From Escherichia coli (GTDB lineage Bacteria; Pseudomonadota; Gammaproteobacteria; Enterobacterales; Enterobacteriaceae), in the NCBI RefSeq assembly GCF_002854065.1, contig NZ_CP024147.1: a DNA stretch of 64,000 bases; one strand, written 5' to 3'. The notes beneath the pieces are model-generated. The model searched no databases. It worked only from the letters and a program-made list of their open reading frames with translations, and was not told the origin of the DNA. The translations under genes and the position numbers were made by a program. Of this stretch, positions 2,433 through 2,599 are shown in pieces; positions within the stretch are counted from its first letter, which is position 1, and each line of letters opens with the position of its first letter.

Positions 2433-2599
2433 TATGGATTAAATTGCTACGACATGTCGTTATGTGATGGATATTCCAATTTTCAAATTAAGTTGAATTA
2501 TTGAGATTATTATTAACCACCTAATTTTACAGCAGATAAAATTCATAAAGTTCATTAATTGATAATTGATATGGATTATTTCATAACCATGATATGGAT
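2433..2599 (-). promoter_or_regulatory. araE upstream region with AraC half-site-like repeats
   Basis: TATGGATTAAATTGCTA at 2433-2449 resembles the AraC half-site (TATGGATAAAAATGCTA); two further TATGGAT direct repeats at 2570 and 2593. Exact operator boundaries not determined. Confidence 0.35.

Follow-up and report, generated by a model that had tools for sequence, protein, structure and literature searches.

A conserved pair of araO2-like boxes upstream of araE as a candidate for DNA looping by AraC

The control of araBAD by AraC is a textbook example of regulation by DNA looping, and transporter promoters are usually drawn without a distal operator. The araO2-araI1 loop is a known repression system, whereas its putative counterpart at araE, described here, is suggested by sequence comparison. 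In Escherichia coli K-12 araO2 (GAAACCAATTGTCCATA) and araI1 (TAGCATTTTTATCCATA) share one strand, the distance between their boxes being 211 bp, and the O2-I1 distance is given as '210 bp' in the literature (PMC11983282). The positions common to araI1 and araO2 can be written as xAxxxxxxxxxTCCATA, and the half-sites of the I1-I2 pair are separated by a gap of 4 bp (PMC11983282). Apo-AraC favours well-separated half-sites and binds adjacent ones poorly, and the DNA-binding domains are set free by arabinose for I1-I2 binding (PMC2241862). A weak auxiliary operator that is aided by a strong proximal site is also found in the loops formed at lac O1-O3 (92 bp), at gal OE-OI together with HU, and by MelR, a member of the AraC family, at melR/melAB; these loops use other proteins than the putative loop at araE.

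To our knowledge, classical work describes araE as activated only, and repression of araE by AraC has not been reported. In RegulonDB and EcoCyc araE is presumably represented by the proximal AraC and CRP sites only and listed as activated only. The mapping of araE by Stoner and Schleif in 1983 (J Mol Biol 171:369) reportedly stops at about -110, so that the region near -200 is not covered; neither it nor the database entries based on it are known to include an element near -195 or -220. Our literature search, which had papers other than the original promoter-mapping ones as its scope, found no paper tying araE to an O2-like site, to looping or to distal-box sequences. Here we propose, with a probability of roughly 0.55, that the spacer between kduD and araE is a complete pBAD-style control region in which AraC would form a loop between I1 and distal boxes.

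The kduD-araE spacer and the proximal araE promoter

We analysed a stretch of 64 kb of E. coli DNA, referred to as the window, in which all genes relevant here are located on the minus strand. The spacer between araE and its upstream neighbour kduD comprises 314 bp and has a GC content of 32%. Of 5426 complete E. coli genomes, 5423 contain a match to the region 2300-2720, and the annotation of the matched DNA names araE and kduD. Identity is 100% to strain CFSAN061763 and 99% to K-12. The borders of the spacer and the elements of the proximal promoter are as follows:

932..2350, minus strand: araE coding sequence, arabinose:H+ symporter of 472 aa (RefSeq annotation)
2385..2415, minus strand: araE core promoter, -35 CTGACA at 2410-2415 and probable -10 TATTTT at 2385-2390
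2412..2428, minus strand: araE I2-like half-site, TGCTGTTTCCGACCTGA, 21 bp downstream of I1
2433..2449, minus strand: araE I1, TAGCAATTTAATCCATA, perfect AraC half-site consensus (K-12 has CAGC...)
2460..2481, no strand assigned: CRP site, core TGGAATATCCATCACA at 2463-2478
2619..2644, minus strand: kduD intrinsic terminator, GC stem at 2623-2644, T-run to about 2619
2665..3426, minus strand: kduD, upstream neighbour of araE

The kduD terminator delimits the control region of araE on its upstream side. Its stem, CTGCC...GGCAG followed by GGTTTTTT, is kept in sequence as well as in structure across many genera, and in Salmonella arizonae the conserved stem is retained even though extra DNA parts it from kduD. 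Searching the spacer against Rfam yielded no family, the two matches (E 0.47 and 0.62) being far under the gathering thresholds. In a consensus promoter scan of the spacer all matches were at or below chance, and the activator-dependent araE promoter was not called by a simple consensus scan.

Nowhere else in the 64 kb is the half-site pattern TAGCN7TCCATA matched perfectly than at 2433-2449 (minus strand). This is the conserved I1, and the ATCCATA copy closest to araE forms its 3' end, being the B-box of I1. The first-pass annotation of the window had rightly taken this copy for a match to the AraC half-site. It had also stated that the spacing of the repeats fits no single I1-I2 site, which does not hold: a canonical pair exists, a direct repeat of 2433-2449 and 2412-2428 that measures 21 bp start to start, overlaps the -35 element and has the CRP site upstream, as expected for an I1-I2 activator site. 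Having no TCCATA and extending in part beyond the flagged interval, I2 had been overlooked, and the CRP site at 2463-2478 had not been recognized. The I2-like half-site ends in CCTGA, which it has in common with I2 of araBAD, and runs into, or abuts, the -35 hexamer CTGACA.

For comparison, 80 araE loci were fetched, one genome per species, and the 62 loci from Enterobacteriaceae were used as core set. Throughout this core set of 62 loci, 29 bp separate the start of the TCACA in the CRP site from the I1 B-box downstream. This distance, the 21 bp from I1 to I2 and the 23 bp from the I1 box to CTGAC are identical in K-12 araBAD, and the 29 bp and 23 bp distances at araE are fixed in the 30 genus-level representatives measured. 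The CCTGAC block at the end of I2 as well as the CTGAC and TAnTTT blocks of the core promoter are conserved across the loci. As in araBAD, a strong I1 is followed by I2 at the -35 element, and the CRP site is located directly upstream of I1 with the same spacing. All three spacings equal those of pBAD, which makes the core of araE a CRP-I1-I2 promoter of the pBAD type. The -35 and -10 hexamers were assigned by analogy, and transcription of araE would accordingly by this analogy start at about 2376-2381. The proximal araE site is already known biology, and we take its I1-I2 and CRP elements to coincide with the AraC and CRP footprints of Stoner and Schleif. Mapped AraC sites away from the repeats, which the first-pass annotation had named as its refutation, thus do not overturn the observation.

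The spacer differs from that of K-12 at four positions, none of which is located in the distal boxes. At position 2449 the first base of I1 is affected, with TAGC in the window corresponding to CAGC in K-12, and both versions are common across genera. The exchange of T1 for C is one of four changes made in I1 by Rodgers & Schleif 2007 at bases that, in their description, add little to the binding energy.

The spacer of the CRP site itself, RTCCATC at window positions 2466-2471, is invariant across genera (TCCATCACA). Spacers of CRP sites are not usually conserved. The TCCAT within it is a fourth such box on the same strand, located 33 bp upstream of the I1 box, and AraC might also touch this TCCAT inside the CRP site.

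Distal TCCATA boxes and their phylogenetic footprint

The TATGGAT repeats that had first drawn attention to the spacer are indeed found at 2433-2439, 2570-2576 and 2593-2599 of the plus strand. TATGGAT corresponds to ATCCATA on the minus strand, i.e. the strand of araE, and all three copies in the spacer are on this strand. The repeated unit is longer than in the first-pass annotation, as 10 nt, ATATGGATTA, occur three times in the spacer, 137 and 23 bp from one copy to the next, and 13 nt, TGATATGGATTAT, occur twice. In a first-order Markov model of the 314-bp spacer 0.075 chance copies of ATCCATA are expected per strand and the probability of at least three copies is about 6e-5, i.e. the three same-strand copies are not due to chance. 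TATGGAT was also counted in the whole window, where 16 copies compare with 7.2 expected from shuffles, most of them in the first 24 kb. This window-wide excess probably results from compositional heterogeneity and not from AraC biology.

The two copies upstream of I1 form a distal pair:

2570..2586, minus strand: near distal AraC-like half-site, TTATGAAATAATCCATA, B-box at 2570-2575
2593..2609, minus strand: far distal O2-like AraC half-site, GATCATCATAATCCATA, B-box TCCATA at 2593-2598

Counted from the I1 B-box, the near B-box lies 137 bp and the far B-box 160 bp upstream, so that the two are spaced by 23 bp. The far copy lies about 20 bp downstream of the kduD terminator, in line with the earlier placement of the pair next to it.

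No other 6-mer located 100-200 bp upstream of I1 is shared as widely as TCCATA, which is present in 60 of the 62 Enterobacteriaceae loci. A 26-genus alignment and anchored information profiles show two islands, TCCATAT and ATCCATA, with about 2 bits per position and flanks of about 0 bits, and the DNA around these islands is otherwise unalignable across the araE loci of the family. Downstream of the near box neither the alignment nor the information profiles revealed a conserved block hinting at a second promoter. The distal distances, all taken start to start between distal box and I1 box, fall into two main classes. Boxes at 137-139 and 160-162 bp are found in Escherichia, Salmonella, Citrobacter, Enterobacter, Kosakonia, Lelliottia, Leclercia, Siccibacter and others, and boxes at 127-129 and 150-152 bp in Klebsiella, Raoultella, Kluyvera and Phytobacter. 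The spacing between near and far box is 23 bp in about 60 loci, the exception being one Raoultella metagenome-assembled genome (MAG) with 33 bp. Only the far box, 150-154 bp from I1, is kept in Buttiauxella, Cedecea, Mangrovibacter and Franconibacter, and no conserved distal box was found in the araE loci of Erwinia, Mixta, Rosenbergiella and Tatumella.

The distance between boxes and I1 is unchanged in three loci where the end of kduD lies 150-350 bp further upstream, and also where kduD is absent, as in Phytobacter and the outer genera. Because the distance to I1 is fixed despite the shift or absence of kduD, the distal boxes belong to araE and not to kduD. An assignment of the boxes to kduD or to its terminator was rejected by this synteny test. 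Within Escherichia both boxes are invariant, and a distal segment of 71 bp is at least 95% identical in 5420 E. coli genomes. Judging from these patterns, the distal pair is very probably a strongly selected, functional cis-element.

We also compared the distal sites with AraC half-sites position by position. The far site keeps the positions common to I1 and O2, i.e. A2, T9, R11, TCCATA and T18: among 24 genus-level representatives A2 is present in 19, T9 in 18, R11 in all 24 and T18 in 22, TCCAT is invariant and the final A is found in 23, which corresponds to a single A-to-G exchange in 144 cells. TCCAT of the near box is invariant in the 20 genera that possess this box (20/20). The far site matches the whole pattern shared by I1 and O2, the near site only its B-box part. 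Moreover, the same variation is tolerated in araE I1, the far box and O2, namely R at position 11, A>G at position 17, and T at position 18. The TAGC A-box is missing from both distal sites. Genuine O2 is conserved along its full 18 nt. At araE, by contrast, the distal sites are constrained in the 3' half only, positions 1 and 3-8 being free, and conservation of a whole 17-bp half-site as in O2 was not found for them. Taken from this comparison, the two distal boxes are likely to be AraC half-sites, and araE would most likely be a second promoter in the AraC regulon to possess an auxiliary operator of the araO2 type.

A putative AraC loop at araE and alternative readings

Like araO2, the distal boxes of araE share the strand of I1, are located more than 100 bp upstream of it, and keep an evolutionarily fixed distance. 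As positive control, araBAD promoters were retrieved from metagenomes by a degenerate I1-I2 pattern. O2 was found 210-213 bp from I1 in 65 metagenome loci, nearly all of them confirmed to be araB-linked. The genuine O2 is thus length-constrained across araBAD promoters, demonstrating that a looping operator exhibits the kind of tight spacing seen for the araE boxes. A minority clade of araB-linked promoters (five loci) contains no TCCATA 210-213 bp from I1 and has one at 88 bp, which suggests a different araBAD operator layout in some taxa. The two systems also differ in several respects. The loop at araE would comprise 127-162 bp as compared to 210-213 bp at araBAD, araE has two distal boxes 23 bp apart where araBAD has one, and the putative araE loop contains neither a divergent araC promoter nor an O1.

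We propose a loop formed by apo-AraC because the combination of a strong I1, weak same-strand sites at a fixed distance and a CRP site in between follows the logic of pBAD. In the absence of arabinose one subunit of the AraC dimer would occupy the strong half-site I1 (2433-2449), and the second subunit would reach over 137-160 bp to one of the weak half-sites that consist of a B-box only (2570-2586 or 2593-2609). The resulting small loop would enclose the CRP site, park AraC at the promoter and keep it off I2. With arabinose the second subunit would move to I2 (2412-2428), directly adjoining the -35 element, so that AraC, together with CRP, would activate araE. The legend of a ChIP/qPCR figure implies that AraC is present at the araE region in cells without arabinose (PMC3738151). 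The earlier suggestion of looping or several sites is favoured by the comparative evidence, from which we infer AraC occupancy of the distal boxes, the loop itself, and its effect on basal and induced expression. The chances that the distal half-sites work by looping to I1 appear evenly balanced, the absence of an A-box and the conservation of only the B-box half in the distal sites being arguments against a loop, as are the uneven helical phase, the 7-bp length variant and the IS5 insertion of one strain described below, and the classical description of araE as activated only. A broader version, in which apo-AraC would bridge I1 and the O2-like pair, possibly with the help of an IHF-type bend at the apex of the loop, and would thereby set basal expression in most Enterobacteriaceae, is put forward more tentatively.

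A loop via one half-site does not account for the rigid 23-bp spacing of the pair, which lends some weight to the alternative that both distal boxes constitute a separate site for a second AraC dimer that does not loop to I1. Such a site would resemble araO1 or the upstream sites of araFGH and might titrate AraC or aid activation. The 23 bp are invariant in about 60 loci and the exceptional 33 bp equal 23 + 10, suggesting that the boxes are read jointly from one helix face, and AraC tolerates altered spacing of half-sites, including an increase by 11 bp (PMC2241862). The canonical spacing is 21 bp, however, not 23 bp, and as neither box has an A-box a second dimer would have to rely on two weak half-sites without a strong one. 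In addition, the lone far box of the outer genera, 150-154 bp from I1, fits a single O2-like half-site better, and the conserved distance to I1 would be left without a reason. We thus regard a second dimer as unlikely. Even less probable is that TCCATA is shared by coincidence, the boxes serving some protein different from AraC or forming a structural DNA element. The strong conservation of only 6-7 bp and the missing A-box would be in keeping with this, and the conserved element resembling the IHF consensus shows that other factors may act in the spacer. Yet araE I1 and araBAD O2 have the same core with the same permitted variation, the boxes are on the same strand as I1 and travel with the AraC-dependent promoter across genera, and we know of no other enterobacterial regulator with the motif of the distal boxes.

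The position of the far box, a constant 17-20 bp after the T-run of the terminator in most genera, would suit a role of AraC as roadblock or insulator downstream of the kduD terminator, directed against read-through from kduD into araE in the absence of arabinose. What the boxes keep is the distance to I1 and not that to the terminator, though: in Kluyvera and a Raoultella MAG the closest T-run upstream is 45 or 77 bp away, no T-run was found within 90 bp in four representatives, including Phytobacter, which lacks kduD, and the far box is kept in outer genera without kduD. A roadblock is accordingly very doubtful. Finally, the 13 identical nucleotides of the distal copies in E. coli could suggest a recent event such as a local duplication of the I1 B-box, which would make the repeats neutral leftovers. 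This identity is specific for Escherichia, however, whereas the core of 6-7 nt is universal, and the boxes are invariant across about 20 genera while their flanks are saturated with substitutions. It is this phylogenetic footprint that effectively refutes the neutral reading.

If the loop between I1 and the distal boxes is real, araE, long treated as simply activated, would be a second natural AraC light-switch loop, and the loop would set basal araE expression and thereby the threshold at which the arabinose system is induced in an all-or-none fashion. With a conserved O2-like element at araE, looping would prove to be a general feature of the AraC regulon, and araE would offer models of loop geometry a naturally shorter loop with two operators. 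The distal element would also matter for engineered arabinose induction because feedback via AraE sets the all-or-none behaviour of pBAD systems.

Spacer length variants and an IHF-like element

Two further elements are located between the CRP site and the distal boxes or at their edge:

2514..2526, minus strand: AT-rich IHF-like element, AATTAGGTGGTTA, with one mismatch (at C) to the IHF consensus WATCARNNNNTTR
2558..2571, minus strand: tandem TATCAAT TATCAAT, overlaps the final 2 nt of the near box and gives rise to a 7-bp length polymorphism

In 38 of the 62 loci the IHF-like element, allowing for one mismatch, is located at exactly -88 relative to the I1 box, and eight loci match perfectly. 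Other positions yield such matches in well under 1% of cases, except for a second group of 11 loci at -110. The element lies roughly midway from I1 to the far box, varies at the C position and is missing in the Klebsiella/Kluyvera spacing class. It may be an architectural bend site that would help a loop at araE.

The larger length changes of the spacer amount to about one helical turn, i.e. 9-10 bp between the two spacing classes and +10 bp between the boxes of the Raoultella MAG, as would suit helical phasing, but these steps go back to only about 2-3 independent indels of about 10 bp. The far-box distances of 150-154 and 160-162 bp cover half a turn. With 10.5 bp per turn the near box is about 12.1-13.2 turns and O2 about 20.0-20.3 turns away from I1. 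The in vivo value for the ara system is 11.1 bp per turn, and with this value neither a distal distance nor the O2 distance is integral. One TATCAAT copy is missing in 371 of 5423 complete E. coli genomes (about 7%) at an identity of at least 99%, which places the distal boxes at 130 and 153 bp from I1; carriers of this allele include Z0117EC0133, which is part of the alignment, O145 RM9872, M8 and GE3. As 7% of the E. coli genomes carry this 7-bp spacing variant, helical phasing is ambiguous. A clean phasing argument was given up, there being no integral fit at 11.1 bp per turn and the 7-bp allele blurring the picture further.

In E. coli EC6 an element of the IS5 family with a frameshifted transposase is inserted at about window position 2524/2525, i.e. 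between the CRP site and the distal boxes and at or beside the IHF-like element, so that the boxes are about 1 kb away from the promoter. Together with the 7-bp allele present in 7% of the E. coli genomes, this insertion in one strain provides natural variants for testing the distal element.
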